Of a stretch of DNA of 64,000 nucleotides, positions 17,844-23,091 are shown in pieces. Within the stretch, counting starts at the first letter, position 1. Every line of letters starts with the position of its first letter. A model generated the notes under the pieces. That model was not told the origin of the DNA. It saw only the letters and a program-made list of their open reading frames with translations, and searched no databases. Source of the stretch: Candidatus Latescibacterota bacterium. Lineage in GTDB: Bacteria > Latescibacterota > UBA2968 > GCA-2709665. The stretch is from positions 608,001 through 672,000 of the forward strand of contig CBDCOX010000002.1 in the NCBI GenBank assembly GCA_965219995.1, in the 5' to 3' direction. The position numbers were made by a program, and so were the translations under genes.

Positions 17844-18461
17844 ATGGCGGAATCTGACGAAGTCAACGGCAAGGAAGGCTGCGAGGAAACCAGCGAAGCG
17901 GAAGTTCGCGAGGACGGGGAAGCGTCCGGGGAAGAAGACGCGCCGGACCCGCTCGAGGAAGCGCTCCGGGAGTCTGAAGAGTACAGGGATCGGTGGATGC
18001 GGCTGGCGGCGGAGTTCGAGAATTACAAGAAACGGAGGTCGAGGGAATTCGATGCCCTGGTTCATTCGGCCAGCGAAAACCTCATTCGGGAACTGCTGCC
18101 GGTCCTCGACTCGGTTGCGCGAGCGCTGGAACACCGCGACGACGGCGAGGAAGAGTCCGACGGTTTCAAACAGGGCGTCACCATGATCATGGAGCAATTT
18201 CCCAAGGTCCTCGAGCGCCGGGGCCTTTCCGAGATCGACGCTCTTGGCCGGCCGTTCGACCCCAACTATCATGAAGCGTTGATGCAGATGTCTTCAGACG
18301 AACACGCGGAGGGGCTGGTGATGGGCGTGGTGGATCGGGGGTACCGCCTGGGAGACAAGGTGATCCGGCCTGCAAAGGTCGTTGTGAGCGGCGGGAGTGC
18401 GGCAAAGGAACCCGATAGCGAAGAAGACGCCGGGAAAGAGTCTGAAGCGCGGGAATCCTGA
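17844..18461 (+). CDS. grpE: Nucleotide exchange factor GrpE
   Basis: [39 protein letters not shown]. Confidence 0.95.
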
Positions 18462-18474
18462 GCAGGAACGGAAA

Positions 18475-19632
18475 ATGTCCAAACGCGACTATTATGAGGT
18501 CCTCGGACTGCAACGGGAAGCATCCGAGAACGAGATCAAAAAAGCCTATCGCAAACAGGCGATGAAATTTCACCCCGATCGGAACGCCGGCGATGAGGAG
18601 GCCGCGGCCAGTTTCAAGGAGGCCGCCGAGGCGTACGAGGTCCTGAGCGATGCCCAGAAACGCCGGGTGTACGACCAGTATGGGCATGCGGGCCTGGGCG
18701 GCCCGTTCCAGGGCGGTGGATTTCAATGGTCCGACTTCACGCATGCGACCGACTTCGAGGATATTTTCTCCAACCTCGACGACGTGTTCGGAGGCGGGAT
18801 TCTGGGCGATCTGTTCGGCCGTCGCGGCGGCCGGCGGGGCCCTCAGCGCGGGGAAGACCTCCGCATTCCGCTCCGGCTGACCCTCGAGGAGATTGCGTCC
18901 GGCGTCCAGAAGAAGATCCGGTTCGCCCGGATGGACCGGTGCGACACATGCGGTGGAACCGGGGCCCGGTCCGGGTCGGCCGCCACTACCTGCAGCGTCT
19001 GCAACGGCATGGGGCAGGTGCGCCAGGCCACGCGTTCGCTTTTCGGGCAGTTTGTGAACGTCACCACGTGCCCTCAGTGCAACGGAGAGGGCAGGGTGAT
19101 CGGCGACCGTTGCTTCGACTGCGGGGGCGACGGCAGGGCGAAGAAGACCGTCAGTCTGTCCGTGAACATACCGGCGGGCGTCACCGACGGAAACTATATC
19201 CCGTTGCGGGGCCAGGGCAGCGTCGGGCCGCGGGACGGCGAAGCCGGCGACTGCATGGTGCTGATCGAAGAGGAGGAGCACGAGTATTTCGAACGGCATG
19301 GCAACGATATTCTCTATGAGTTGCCGATCAGTTTCAGCCAGGCGGCGCTCGGCGCCGAGGTCACTGTGCCCACGTTGAGCAGCAGGGCGGAAATGAAGAT
19401 ACCTCCGGGAACGCAGTCCGGGCAGGTCTTTCGTCTGAAGGGCAAGGGGATCCCCGAGTTGAACGGGTATCGGACCGGAGACCAGCTCGTACGCGTGATG
19501 GTCTGGACCCCCGCCCGTCTCAATGAGGAAGAGAAGACGTTGTTCAGGCAACTCGCCGAACTCGAGAATATCCAGCCGCCCGAGGGCGGCAAGGGGATAT
19601 TCGAACGCATGAAGGAGGCGTTTGGCGGGTAA
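18475..19632 (+). CDS. dnaJ: Chaperone DnaJ
   Basis: [13 protein letters not shown] region, four CxxCxGxG repeats. Confidence 0.97.
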
Positions 19633-19707
19633 GGCAAGGTTCGCGCGGGCGCCGGACTCTGCAGCCGGGGACGTCGGACCCGCTGTCATTGGATCGTCGA
19701 ATCTACT

Positions 19708-21144
19708 TCAGGTCAGCCCTGGAAACAGGGGCTGGCCTTTTCTGATCTCAACCCTCGAGAAACCGGTTTCGATTCGTTCAGCCGTGCCCGGGAGAAAGGG
19801 TCTCAGGACCCATGAAATGGCGCGGACCGATCCCACCCAGGCCGAGAGGTGTTGTTCGAGCTTCCCGGCCCTTTGCCCTTTCAGAAGTTCCCATGGGCGT
19901 ACCGCGTCGATTTCACGGTTCATGTCGTCCACGCGCCCCCAGACTGTCTTGAGGGCCCCGGCAAAGTCGAAACGGTCCAGCGCGTCCGTCACGTCCGGCG
20001 GAACCCGGAATTCGGGCGTTGCCGCCCGACCGTAACCGCACCTTTCGCAGAGAGATTCGAGCCGTCGCACGAGATTGCCCAGGCCGTTCGCCAGGTCGGT
20101 TCTGTAGATTTGCCGAAGTCCGGCTTCGGAGACGTCACTGTCTCCTCCGGAACGGACGGCGCGCAGGAGGTAGTAGCGGACGGCGTCAGGGCCGTATCGC
20201 CGGATCAGCGGGAATGGATCCACGGCGTTGTCCAGCGACTTGCCGATCTTGCGGCCTTCAACGGTCAGATGGCCGTGGACGAAGACGGCCCGGGGCAGCG
20301 GCAGGCCGGCTGAGAGCAGCATGGCGGGCCAGTAGACGGCGTGGAATTTGAGGATGTCCTTTCCGATGACGTGGACCTTGTCGGGACAGTCACGCCAGTA
20401 GCGTCCGAAATCTCCACTGTCCGAGCCGTAGCCGAGTCCCGTGAGGTAGTTGGTCAGAGCGTCGAACCAGACGTATACGACCTGGGTCGGATCGCCGGGC
20501 ACGGGCACGCCCCAGCCACCGGACCGATTCCGATTGCGGGAAACGCTGAAGTCCCGCAGGCCCTGCCTGATGAACCCCAGCGCTTCGTTTCTCCGCGTTT
20601 CCGGGAGTATCCGAAGCTCCCCGGATGTGATAAGGTCTTCCAGCGCCTCTTGATAGGAGGACAGGCGGAAGAAATAGTTCGTTTCTTCGACGGTCTCGGG
20701 TTCGACACCGTGAACAGGACACCGACCGTCCGAAAGGTCCCGTTCCAGGTAGAAGTCCTCGCATCCCACGCAATACAGACCGCGGTACTGTTTGAGGAAG
20801 ACGTCCTCCTGCCGGCAGGCCGACCAGAATCGGGATGCGCCGAGGACGTGGGTGTCCGTCGAGGAGCGAATGAAGCGGTCGAACGAGATGTCGAGGGCTT
20901 CGGCGAGGTTTTTGAAGACAGCGGCATTCCGCTCGCAGAGTTGACGCGGCTTCAGGCCTTCCCTGGCGGCGGCCTGCACGTTTTTGAATGCATTTTCGTC
21001 GGTCCCGGTCAGGAAGAACGTGTCGTGGCCCAGAAGCCGGCGCCACCTGGCGATCACGTCGGCCTGTACCAGCTCCAGTGCGAAGCCCAGATGGGGGCGG
21101 GCGTTGACGTAAGGGATGGAAGTCGACACATAGGAAGTCTCCAT
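19708..21144 (-). CDS. metG: Methionine--tRNA ligase, short atypical form (HLGF and KIGKS motifs)
   Basis: IPYVNARPHLG, FLTGTDE, YCVGCE zinc knuckle, YVWFDAL.NY, IGKDILKFHAVYWPAML, LANGLGNLV.R; RBS AAAGGA. Confidence 0.9.
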   Translation of the reverse strand: METSYVSTSIPYVNARPHLGFALELVQADVIARWRRLLGHDTFFLTGTDENAFKNVQAAAREGLKPRQLCERNAAVFKNLAEALDISFDRFIRSSTDTHVLGASRFWSACRQEDVFLKQYRGLYCVGCEDFYLERDLSDGRCPVHGVEPETVEETNYFFRLSSYQEALEDLITSGELRILPETRRNEALGFIRQGLRDFSVSRNRNRSGGWGVPVPGDPTQVVYVWFDALTNYLTGLGYGSDSGDFGRYWRDCPDKVHVIGKDILKFHAVYWPAMLLSAGLPLPRAVFVHGHLTVEGRKIGKSLDNAVDPFPLIRRYGPDAVRYYLLRAVRSGGDSDVSEAGLRQIYRTDLANGLGNLVRRLESLCERCGYGRAATPEFRVPPDVTDALDRFDFAGALKTVWGRVDDMNREIDAVRPWELLKGQRAGKLEQHLSAWVGSVRAISWVLRPFLPGTAERIETGFSRVEIRKGQPLFPGLT

Positions 21145-21164
21145 GGCATGTCCTTTCCAATTGC

Positions 21165-21201
21165 AAAAAAAACCCACCGCCGATGAATCGGCGGTGGGTT
21201 T
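21165..21201 (-). terminator. Attenuator terminator in the metG leader
   Basis: Perfect inverted repeat AAACCCACCGCCGAT/ATCGGCGGTGGGTTT with a run of 8 T on the minus strand, about 20 nt before the metG start. Confidence 0.9.
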
Positions 21202-21229
21202 GTCGGTTCGAATCTACGTGTGATTCAGT

Positions 21230-21388
21230 TCAGGTCAGGGGATGTTTCGCCGCCGAAGTTCCGGAAGTAAAGGTGGCCATCATGTACATGGGAATATCGA
21301 CGGCGCCAGTCCGCGTCGCGTCGTTCGGTACGGCTGAGGATCGCCGGGGTTTTGGCGATCCGTCATTTGAGAATTGAACAGACGTCAT
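21230..21388 (-). CDS. Putative 52-aa metG leader peptide with a Met cluster (MYMM)
   Basis: RBS CAGGAG, then MTSVQFSNDGSPKPRRSSAVPNDATRTGAVDIPMYMMATFTSGTSAAKHPLT*; lies between promoter and terminator. Confidence 0.75.
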   Translation of the reverse strand: MTSVQFSNDGSPKPRRSSAVPNDATRTGAVDIPMYMMATFTSGTSAAKHPLT

Positions 21389-21415
21389 TCCAGTCTCCTG
21401 TATTCGGTACGAGAG

Positions 21416-21444
21416 AATATAGAATGCGGGCCACGAATTGTCAA
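21416..21444 (-). promoter_or_regulatory. Sigma70-type promoter of leader-metG
   Basis: TTGACA-17 nt-TATATT on the minus strand. Confidence 0.75.
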
Positions 21445-21477
21445 GTCCAGTGGGTTTTGTTGTACAGTCATTCTAGG

Positions 21478-21880
21478 CGACGTCAAAAAGCACCTATCGA
21501 AACGTGGTCATTGAGCTTGTCGAAATGCCCGTATTCCGGAATTCCGTCGACACACACGCCGTCTCGTCATGCCCTTCTGGCCGCAAACGTGCCGCCTTCC
21601 AGGCTCGCGATACGTACCAATCACGCAGCCATCAACCGATGCCGCAGTAGATCCTTCGTCGGCCGGCCTGCCAATAATTCTCTGGCAGGCCGGCTTCCTC
21701 AGGATGACAGTTTTGGCAAACGTGTGACTGAACCGTCTCGCTTTATGGATATTGCAAAACCTGTCATTCTGAGCGCAGCGAAGAATCTCCCGTCTTCTCA
21801 ATCGTCCCGGACACAGCAACGCGGGAAACACATTGGCGCGGACACATCACCGGTTTGACGGCCTCCTCATGATGGCAGTC
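21478..21880. repeat. Composite REP/MITE-like element, copy 1
   Basis: Modules GGTCATTGAGCTTGTCGAAATGCCC, CCTCAGGATGACAG and TGTCATTCTGAGCGCAGCGAAGAATCTCCCGTCTTC; colinear with the reverse complement of 56254-56628. Confidence 0.75.
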
Positions 21881-22041
21881 AGATTGCCGATTCTGCATCT
21901 TACCCTTGTCCTTTTCTCGGTATGGGCTTACATTGACGCAGACGGGAAAACCGGCGGCCGGCATCACGGTTTCCCGATTTCGCGCCTCTACAGGGCGTAG
22001 AATTACTCGTGCGAACACCTTGAAGGAATAGGGGACCGCTT

Positions 22042-23091
22042 GTGCTTTATTGGCTGGGAGAACGATTTGCCGATGTGTACGGGCCCTTACGGCTCTTGAC
22101 GTCCTATCTGTTTCTGGCCGTTCTGGGCACGGCGCTGGCGGGGCTTTTTACATGGCGTCTGCTTCCGAGGCTGTGGATGCGGCTGCCCAAAGACCGGGGC
22201 CGCGCGTACGCCGTCGAGAACGAGCAGAGCCACGGCAAGCCCGTTGGCGCGGGCGTGATCTTCATCCCCATCTATCTGGTCGTGTGTTTGCTGATTCTGC
22301 CGCCGGGTTCCCAGTACTGGCAGATTCTGGGCTGTCTGTTTCTCGCCATGCTGGCCGGTTTCCTTGACGATCGAAGTCCGGGAGGATGGGGCGAGTACCG
22401 CGTGGGAGCCATCGACCTGGGCATTTCCCTGCTTGGCGCAATGGTTATCTGCCAGCTGGAGTCCGTCGAGCTCTGGCTGCCGCTGATGAAGACGCCGGTT
22501 CTGGTTCATCCGTGGATATTCGTGCCCGGAGCCGCGCTATTGATCTGGGTTTCAATCAATGCCACCAACTGTACGGATGGCGTGGACGGGCTGTCGGGCA
22601 GCCTGAGCGTCCTCGCCTTTATCTATCTGGGCGTCATTCTATACGGGATTGTGGGGCACACGGACATTGCCAGGTACCTTCTCGTGCCGCACTATCCCGA
22701 TGGCGCGGTGTGGGCGCTGTTCGCATTTGTCATGGCCGGGTGCCTGGCCGGATATCTGTGGTACAACGCCTATCCCAGCGCCGTGATGATGGGAGACGCG
22801 GGGTCCCGGCCGATGGGTTTCCTGCTCGGTATACTCGTTCTTGCGTGCGGCAATCCGTTTCTGATCGTCGTCGTCGCCAGCGTGGTCCTGGTGAACGGGG
22901 CCACGGGATTGTTGAAAGTGGCGCTGCTCCGGTTTCTGAAGATCGGGATCTTCCAGACGGTTCGATATCCGCTTCACGATCACTTCCGGCACAAGAACGG
23001 CTGGTCGAATACGCACGTACTCGTGCGTTTCATTCTGCTCCAGGCGTTCGTGACGCCGATTCTGCTGGTGCTGCTGGTTAAGATACGATAG
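22042..23091 (+). CDS. mraY: Phospho-N-acetylmuramoyl-pentapeptide transferase (stand-alone)
   Basis: GKP.GAG, GFLDD, NATNCTDGVDGL, LWYNAYPS.VMMGDAGS, PLHDHF. Confidence 0.85.
   Translation: MLYWLGERFADVYGPLRLLTSYLFLAVLGTALAGLFTWRLLPRLWMRLPKDRGRAYAVENEQSHGKPVGAGVIFIPIYLVVCLLILPPGSQYWQILGCLFLAMLAGFLDDRSPGGWGEYRVGAIDLGISLLGAMVICQLESVELWLPLMKTPVLVHPWIFVPGAALLIWVSINATNCTDGVDGLSGSLSVLAFIYLGVILYGIVGHTDIARYLLVPHYPDGAVWALFAFVMAGCLAGYLWYNAYPSAVMMGDAGSRPMGFLLGILVLACGNPFLIVVVASVVLVNGATGLLKVALLRFLKIGIFQTVRYPLHDHFRHKNGWSNTHVLVRFILLQAFVTPILLVLLVKIR

Follow-up and report, generated by a model that had tools for sequence, protein, structure and literature searches.

Aminoacyl-tRNA synthetases are made by the same translation system that they feed, and a cell without charged tRNA-Met can hardly make more methionyl-tRNA synthetase (MetRS). 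Vecchione and Sello reportedly described, in 2010, an auxiliary tryptophanyl-tRNA synthetase (TrpRS) gene of Streptomyces coelicolor that is under ribosome-mediated attenuation. Here we describe a short MetRS paralog of 478 amino acids (aa) plus stop, located at positions 19708..21144 of a window of 64,000 nucleotides (nt), the whole stretch of DNA that was analyzed, from a Candidatus Latescibacterota bacterium (assembly GCA_965219995.1, contig CBDCOX010000002.1, positions 608,001 to 672,000 of the forward strand); coordinates are those of the window, on the minus strand unless noted. Like the Streptomyces TrpRS gene, it accompanies a housekeeping enzyme as a second copy; antibiotic resistance is reported there, whereas resistance to an inhibitor is not known for the MetRS paralog. 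An excerpt of PMC1262725 gives predicted attenuators at trpS2 and leuS in Streptomyces and at pheST in gamma-proteobacteria and, within that excerpt, no RNA regulatory structure for the methionine operons of Actinobacteria. Like those synthetase genes, the paralog stands behind a leader open reading frame (ORF) rich in cognate codons and a terminator; unlike them and the Streptomyces TrpRS gene, the amino acid is methionine (Met), the enzyme is purged of its cognate residue, and the pairing of enzyme and leader occurs in several phyla. We propose that the paralog is probably an accessory MetRS, kept as a spare beside the housekeeping MetRS for times when charged tRNA-Met is scarce and controlled by attenuation in its leader, a proposal built on its composition, the gene pair, the anatomy of leader and terminator, and the recurrence of these features.

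As regards composition, Mazel and Marliere are said to have described in 1989 sulfur-starvation paralogs of cyanobacterial phycobiliproteins without Met and Cys. The likeness is that a stress-time paralog would spare the limiting residue; unlike the phycobiliproteins, the MetRS paralog spares Met only, with Cys unchanged, and is itself the enzyme that handles the spared residue. Since Met is spared and Cys is not, the logic would be that of tRNA charging and not that of sulfur economy. Amino acid biosynthetic enzymes are poor in their cognate amino acid according to the available part of PMC4209129, and the paralog resembles the cases treated there in that proteins of starvation time are low in the limiting amino acid. 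In that part of the paper the bias lies in biosynthetic pathways, whereas the MetRS subfamily shows an almost complete loss, with members that retain nothing but the start Met; the phrase 'aminoacyl-tRNA synthetases' is absent from PMC4209129 according to a text search.

The best match of solved structure is Aquifex aeolicus MetRS (2csx/2ct8), which is also a short MetRS1 of comparable length (497 aa), without C-terminal domain and with a single CxxC...CPxH knuckle; unlike the paralog, it has HLGH, KMSKT and TDEHG in the printed alignment. The presence of two distinct MetRS genes in one organism is shared with Streptococcus pneumoniae. Gentry et al. reportedly found the second MetRS gene of that species in 2003, together with a variable sensitivity to synthetic MetRS inhibitors. 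In a 2022 review on duplicated synthetases (PMC9437257), neither 'MetRS' nor 'methionyl' occurs. Our search of the literature, mostly open-access full text with supplements excluded (e.g. the PMC4787780 catalogue), found no Met-depleted MetRS and no Met-codon leader.

A preliminary description of the locus had counted three Met in 478 aa, read the signature motifs as HLGF and KIGKS, and noted the absence of the C-terminal tRNA-binding domain; all of this was recovered when the translation and the alignment were read again. The Met residues are at positions 1, 275 (in WPAM) and 408 (in DDM), and there are eight Cys. The gene is not the only metG of its genome (G000), which also encodes, elsewhere, a canonical MetRS of 634 aa with HLGH, KMSKS and the C-terminal domain. 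Both proteins share 41% identity, and in the alignment the paralog ends where the canonical enzyme runs on for approximately 130 more residues. Among the 18 other genomes of the taxonomic family, 16 carry both genes, the paralog being absent from G001 and G018 (80% complete), and it was found in none of the 12 genomes of the sister family. The canonical type is present in all 31 genomes searched, G000 included. Since the canonical type is universal among these genomes and the paralog is patchy, the short gene is the accessory copy. It should be mentioned that in one genome of the genus (locus L021, G012:C5:1245474-1246908) the paralog was matched in two pieces, residues 1-137 and 137-478, and may be frameshifted or a pseudogene.

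The comparison within genomes reveals how poor in Met the accessory copy is. In each of 15 same-genome pairs of the family, the paralog contains 1-4 Met (mean 2.3) vs 10-16 (mean 13.5) in the N-terminal 480 aa of its canonical counterpart, and Cys is about equal (approximately 8 vs 8.6). Pooled over these pairs, internal Met amounts to 0.27% in the paralog and to 2.62% in the canonical enzyme, a ratio of 0.10, while for the other residues the ratio lies between 0.68 and 1.79, with Trp (0.68) as the next lowest and Cys at 0.97. The depletion is specific to Met, and the paired and per-residue comparisons reject chance or composition as its sole cause. The earlier statement that Cys is retained, and that general sulfur sparing is not at work, agrees with these ratios.

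The same tendency was observed outside these pairs, and close homologs do not have the Met content of ordinary MetRS. The 120 best database matches to the paralog (clusters at 90% identity, all of about 470-520 aa) include 33 that keep the start Met alone; 81 have at most two Met, 100 at most four, and the remaining 20 have 5-12. Outside the family of the window, a pairing tallied by hand in 23 genomes of other lineages gave fewer Met in the subfamily copy than in the co-resident MetRS (4-15 Met per 480 residues) in 22 cases, and a tie in Saccharopolyspora (10 vs 10 Met). Second copies (n=22) have 1-10 Met with a median of 2.5, and sole copies (n=48) have 2-17 with a median of 8. Moreover, the median Met count is 9 in loci that carry Met at the KMSKS position and 3 in the others, and the loss of this Met and, in relatives, of that of WPAM fits a purge that would have reached conserved positions. 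Measured against the rest of its own genome, the paralog is indeed Met-poor, as the preliminary description had it, but its deficit is only modestly unusual. In a crude set of 3414 non-overlapping ORFs, some of them spurious (e.g. the dnaJ antisense), internal Met is 1.77% on average, and among the 1970 ORFs with 350 aa or more, 73 contain as little Met as the paralog does (2 in 477; binomial P 0.009).

We also considered whether the paralog has the features of a working enzyme. The variant of HIGH, HLGF (residues 18-21, 21082..21093), keeps the invariant first His and Gly, and its last position is F in 112 of the 120 homologs, which read HxGF. The variant of KMSKS, KIGKS (residues 299-303, 20236..20250), belongs to the pattern KI[SG]KS found in 113 of the 120, with KMSKS itself in one; K299, K302 and S303 are invariant in the alignment, and M and the first S are substituted. 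In addition, the paralog reads TDENA where canonical MetRS has TDEHG. The WPAM motif (residues 272-275, 20320..20331) carries one of the two internal Met; its W, P and A are invariant and its M is replaced by L, F or I in several relatives. A single zinc knuckle, C125-x2-C128 ... C142-P-x-H145 (20710..20772), holds three of the eight Cys and is invariant at all four residues. Further invariant columns are Y12, D49, W226, A229, Y233, H268, W272, N353, R361 and W418, which we take to be Met-pocket and anticodon positions on the basis of work on the Escherichia coli and Thermus thermophilus enzymes. The TIGR00398 metG profile scores 395.2 bits, above its cut-off of 336.35, and PF09334 scores 315 bits (cut-off 20.1, E 6e-94). 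The full-length equivalog NF008900 reaches 465 bits, under its cut-off of 598, as expected for a protein without the C-terminal domain. Furthermore, the Aquifex structure 2csx matches residues 2-455 with E 3.5e-107. Considering the strong profile and structure matches, the invariance of the presumed pocket and anticodon-helix columns, and the presence of the same variants in enzymes that are the only MetRS of their genome, the paralog is likely a catalytically competent MetRS of the short MetRS1 subfamily.

This last point was obtained from a scan of one genome per species, which gave 597 relatives; taxonomy was taken from the best 80, and PF09334 was searched in 72 of their genomes. The best 80 of the 597 belong to Patescibacteria, DPANN archaea, Chloroflexota, Actinomycetota, Rhizobium, Agrobacterium, Myxococcota, Gemmatimonadota, Rokubacteria and others. 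Among the 72 genomes searched, those of 0.5-1.5 Mb have the subfamily enzyme as their only MetRS, and the large ones mostly have it beside a canonical MetRS. HxGF, KI[SG]KS and the short length also occur in the sole-MetRS genomes (e.g. at L055, L081, L122 and L126), where the enzyme must work, so that these variants are apparently not decay. On the sequences compared, they and the missing C-terminal domain are best described as traits of the subfamily, neither decay nor starvation devices as such. The preliminary idea of a starvation-adapted paralog is supported by the comparison of Met content, and not by the motif variants or the short length that had been listed with it. In a quick FastTree tree of 97 sequences, which gave compositional warnings and from which no direction of transfer was drawn, all second copies fall in one clade of 37 rows (support 92), nested in a family in which sole copies of small genomes make up most of the deeper branches; the canonical co-resident MetRS fall in separate clades.

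The region upstream of the paralog had been described as an attenuator, and its anatomy is that of one. A sigma-70-type promoter (TTGACA, 17-nt spacer, TATATT; 21416..21444) agrees with the consensus at 11 of 12 positions, and the TTGACA box is equally spaced in 11 further orthologs of the genus. It is followed by a ribosome-binding site (RBS), AGGAGA (21394..21399), 5 nt ahead of the ATG of a predicted leader ORF of 52 codons plus stop (21230..21388), whose peptide ends in ...DIPMYMMATFTSGTSAAKHPLT. Twelve loci of the genus share this arrangement, with a leader ORF of 50-57 codons in the corresponding frame. Within the leader lie the candidate regulatory codons ATG TAC ATG ATG (M34, Y35, M36 and M37; 21278..21289). 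The pattern M-x-M-M occurs in 11 of the 12 genus leaders, with C, Y or R as x, and the remaining one (L006) reads MYMP. Since M-x-M-M is kept while x varies, the conserved element is probably the Met codons and not a peptide or RNA motif. Downstream, an intrinsic terminator with a 14-bp stem (9 G-C pairs), a 4-nt loop and a T8 tail (21165..21201) is placed 21 nt before the paralog start codon, and its stem is invariant in 11 orthologs. The paralog itself has the RBS GGAAAGGA (21151..21158), conserved in the orthologs. An alternative GTG start at 21177, giving 489 aa, was discarded, as it would run through the upstream terminator and the orthologs all begin at ATG. Promoter, M-x-M-M leader and terminator, conserved in the genus, are what stands of the earlier claim; induction of the gene is what we infer from them.

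Known RNA regulators were searched for with Rfam in two scans. Across the window, a single tRNA was the only hit above a gathering score, and at E values up to 10 the region 21050-22100 gave weak matches to the terminator hairpin only, plus one at chance level at the 22042 edge. A T-box or a S-adenosylmethionine (SAM) riboswitch is unlikely given the lack of Rfam matches, and these and other known RNA regulators were discarded as explanations of the leader. In the genome of the window, blastn with the leader and a scan of small ORFs found no other gene with a Met leader. The scan required ATGATG within a small ORF and, after it, a hairpin and a T-run; of the 14 rows obtained in all, only the leader of the paralog is intergenic, has a strong terminator and lies directly upstream of a gene.

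The predicted alternative pairings of the leader RNA have the architecture of a classical attenuator. A hairpin 1:2 (21249..21305) would enclose the Met codons and sequester the CGGCGGCG strand, with region 2 at approximately 21249-21257. This hairpin is present in the minimum-free-energy fold of the window leader and in the consensus fold of 11 orthologs, in which the Met codons lie within the stem, the 3' strand reads CGCGGC(GG), and the invariant terminator follows. When 31 nt around the Met codons were blocked, as by a stalled ribosome, and the transcript was folded as far as the loop of the terminator, region 2 formed pairs with the terminator 5' arm (region 3); with the block moved to the stop codon of the window leader, hairpin 1:2 appeared together with the terminator. 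In each of the 11 orthologs, the duplex energies lay within -16.7 to -24.3 for 1:2, -15.2 to -18.8 for 2:3 and -25 to -32 kcal/mol for 3:4. The 2:3 energy mostly beats that of shuffled versions of region 2, the fraction of shuffles as good being 0.000-0.157.

On these grounds, the control of the gene could work as follows. Transcription would begin from the promoter at 21444-21416, and a ribosome would translate the 52-codon leader. With plentiful Met-tRNA, it would clear M34, M36 and M37, hairpin 1:2 would form behind it, and with this hairpin formed the terminator (3:4) would form as well, stopping transcription 25 nt ahead of the gene. Under a shortage of elongator Met-tRNA, the ribosome would stall on the Met codons inside hairpin 1:2; region 2 (CGGCGG), thereby released, would pair with the terminator 5' arm (CCGCCG), and RNA polymerase would enter the gene. 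The resulting mRNA contains only two AUG codons after the start, many relatives having no internal AUG at all, and could be translated with little beyond initiator tRNA. In this way, the synthesis of the paralog would escape the circular need of Met-tRNA for making MetRS.

Leaders with Met codons are also found at second copies in other phyla. In the 300 nt upstream of each gene we counted ORFs of 8-90 codons in which two internal Met codons are adjacent, and these were present at 14 of the 22 second copies from Actinomycetota, Rhizobium/Agrobacterium, Gemmatimonadota, Chloroflexota, Myxococcota and Rokubacteria; the rows of this count are related genes and not independent. As for the controls, the opposite strand gave one in 22, 200 shuffles gave 0.23 on average and 2 at most, and there was one in 48 sole copies and one in 20 co-resident canonical genes. 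Examples of the predicted peptides are MDNTVISTFVMMMPRS in two Rhizobium, ...ATMMMLRS in Agrobacterium, ...NPMMRPAPGLFGVR in Actinoplanes and MRTRDERMMRPLPGLLGVR in a Gemmatimonadota genome, with comparable leaders in Gaiella, Thermoleophilia, Rokubacteria, Chloroflexota and Myxococcales. The peptides differ strongly between groups, which suggests a fast turnover or a repeated invention of leader peptides. Whether the association of a MetRS needing no elongator Met-tRNA with a Met-codon attenuator is a portable module, spread horizontally through at least six bacterial phyla, is in our judgment an evenly balanced question.

Several observations weigh against an attenuated spare MetRS. Within its own genome, the Met count of the paralog is only at about the 4th percentile, and ten of the 48 sole copies, mostly of Patescibacteria, have 2-4 Met, so that the depletion is not strictly bound to spare status. 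Tests on independent pairs (leader vs low Met, second copy vs low Met, and second copy vs leader), with 3-6 usable pairs, were not significant (median p 1), and the association could therefore stem from few events. The leader, low Met and second-copy status all fall together in the single 37-row clade, and four second copies with 6-10 Met (L062, L065, L094 and L102) have no leader ORF. Regarding the RNA, a leader of 52 codons is long for an attenuator, and no covariation was found for the antiterminator, the paired bases of which are invariant in the genus. In addition, of 26 leaders folded automatically with and without a stalled ribosome, only four (L001, L108, L079 and L064) switched clearly, in a crude test that chose hairpins heuristically and left the translated upstream RNA free to pair. 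The percentile, the Met-poor sole copies and the independent-pairs tests would also be expected if low Met were an inherited, mostly neutral trait of the subfamily, the gene a redundant copy acquired horizontally, and the upstream ORF and terminator no sensor of Met. We consider this improbable, because a ten-fold deficit in Met only, with the other residues at 0.68-1.79 fold, is hard to obtain by drift, and even the Met of KMSKS and, in relatives, that of WPAM have been substituted. Moreover, adjacent Met codons in the upstream ORFs far exceed all four controls, and the Met codons are retained while the codon between them changes.

A different explanation shares the regulation proposed here, and differs in the trigger and in the property of the enzyme that was selected. 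The paralog could be an inhibitor- or damage-resistant spare, replacing a housekeeping MetRS that has been blocked or inactivated (e.g. oxidized), as the preliminary description had suggested in part with an inhibitor-resistant back-up; the low Met content would again favour its synthesis. By analogy, the auxiliary, antibiotic-resistant TrpRS of Streptomyces under ribosome-mediated attenuation would be its precedent, and the attenuators predicted at Streptomyces trpS2 and leuS in the excerpt of PMC1262725 point in the same direction. Both signature motifs differ and identity to the canonical enzyme is 41%, which makes a differing sensitivity to inhibitors plausible, and many of the carriers are soil Actinomycetota and Myxococcota. 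However, no biosynthetic cluster or resistance context was seen beside the gene, the neighbours being dnaJ and a MraY-like gene, and the same subfamily provides the sole MetRS of many small genomes. The fact that Cys is not depleted argues against general oxidation-proofing, and we know of no widespread natural inhibitor of MetRS. Taken together, we regard a resistant spare as rather unlikely. Since the leader would answer any fall in the charging of Met-tRNA, it does not tell starvation from a disabled enzyme, and Met starvation is the trigger that we prefer for the accessory MetRS. Departure of the paralog from translation, as a Met sensor, a Met-analogue enzyme or part of a tRNA-dependent side pathway, could be imagined from its two altered class I signatures and the change of TDEHG to TDENA. 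We find this scarcely credible, given that the same variants occur in sole-MetRS genomes, that the presumed Met-pocket and anticodon columns are invariant, and that the match to a solved MetRS is full-length.

If the accessory MetRS works as proposed, it would be the first case in nature of an aminoacyl-tRNA synthetase purged of its cognate amino acid, and its leader the first Met-sensing leader-peptide attenuator; together they would constitute a natural way out of the need of MetRS for Met-tRNA in its own synthesis. This would extend the sparing of cognate residues from biosynthetic enzymes to the translation machinery, and methionine would join the few amino acids that leader peptides sense. 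It would also account for the second metG that is common, and so far unexplained, in bacteria of soil, sea and symbioses. Rhizobium leguminosarum and Actinoplanes are cultivable carriers, and naturally Met-free enzymes could serve in labelling with Met analogues or in reconstituted translation.

Some loci present particular arrangements. A second type of small ORF, located 100-130 nt before the paralog start and running into it, was observed at L006, L007, L018, L019 and L021, all relatives from the family of the window. It also has Met codons (...GIGYMRMSSSMRNH... in L018 and ...VSFMCMSLSLRN... in L006), and lies after the terminator-bearing leader in L006 and L007 and alone, with no obvious terminator, in L018 and L019. 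The Ser codons that follow the Met codons (TCCTCTTCT) resemble an anti-Shine-Dalgarno of the GAAAGGA site, and this would point to attenuation at the level of translation rather than of transcription. In an Actinomycetota metagenome-assembled genome (MAG; G057), the subfamily member L084 (521 aa, KISKS, 6 Met) is in tandem, approximately 470 nt apart, with a different type of MetRS (HLGN, 482 aa as parsed). In a Caldilineaceae MAG of 10.1 Mb (G042), the PF09334 search found one MetRS (L069), with 3 Met in 530, preceded by a leader ORF containing ...SSIMRMAMQM...; either the second gene is absent from the assembly, or a sole MetRS can be under such leader control.

In the window, a dnaJ-like gene (18397-19632, plus strand) is convergent on the paralog. 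A 500-aa ORF antisense to it (18187-19689, minus strand) is almost certainly spurious and was disregarded. At the junction of both genes there is a hairpin followed by a T-run (19710-19738, plus strand), which could terminate both. On the other side, a MraY-like gene (22042-23091, plus strand) is divergent, and the approximately 590 bp between the leader promoter and this gene (21450-22040) contain short unconvincing ORFs only. Profiles of metH and metE gave only split or short homologs under the cut-off in the whole genome. Separate short ORFs for the B12-binding, pterin-binding and homocysteine-methyltransferase parts of MetH were seen at G000:C2:4593716-4600383 and other places, together with three core-MetE-like ORFs (334-394 aa) and seven further ORFs with a homocysteine-methyltransferase domain. 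Finally, among public runs, three that are labelled sponge or marine metagenome and come from three different studies contain at least half of the sampled words of 19600-21500, which hints at a marine, sponge-associated lineage.

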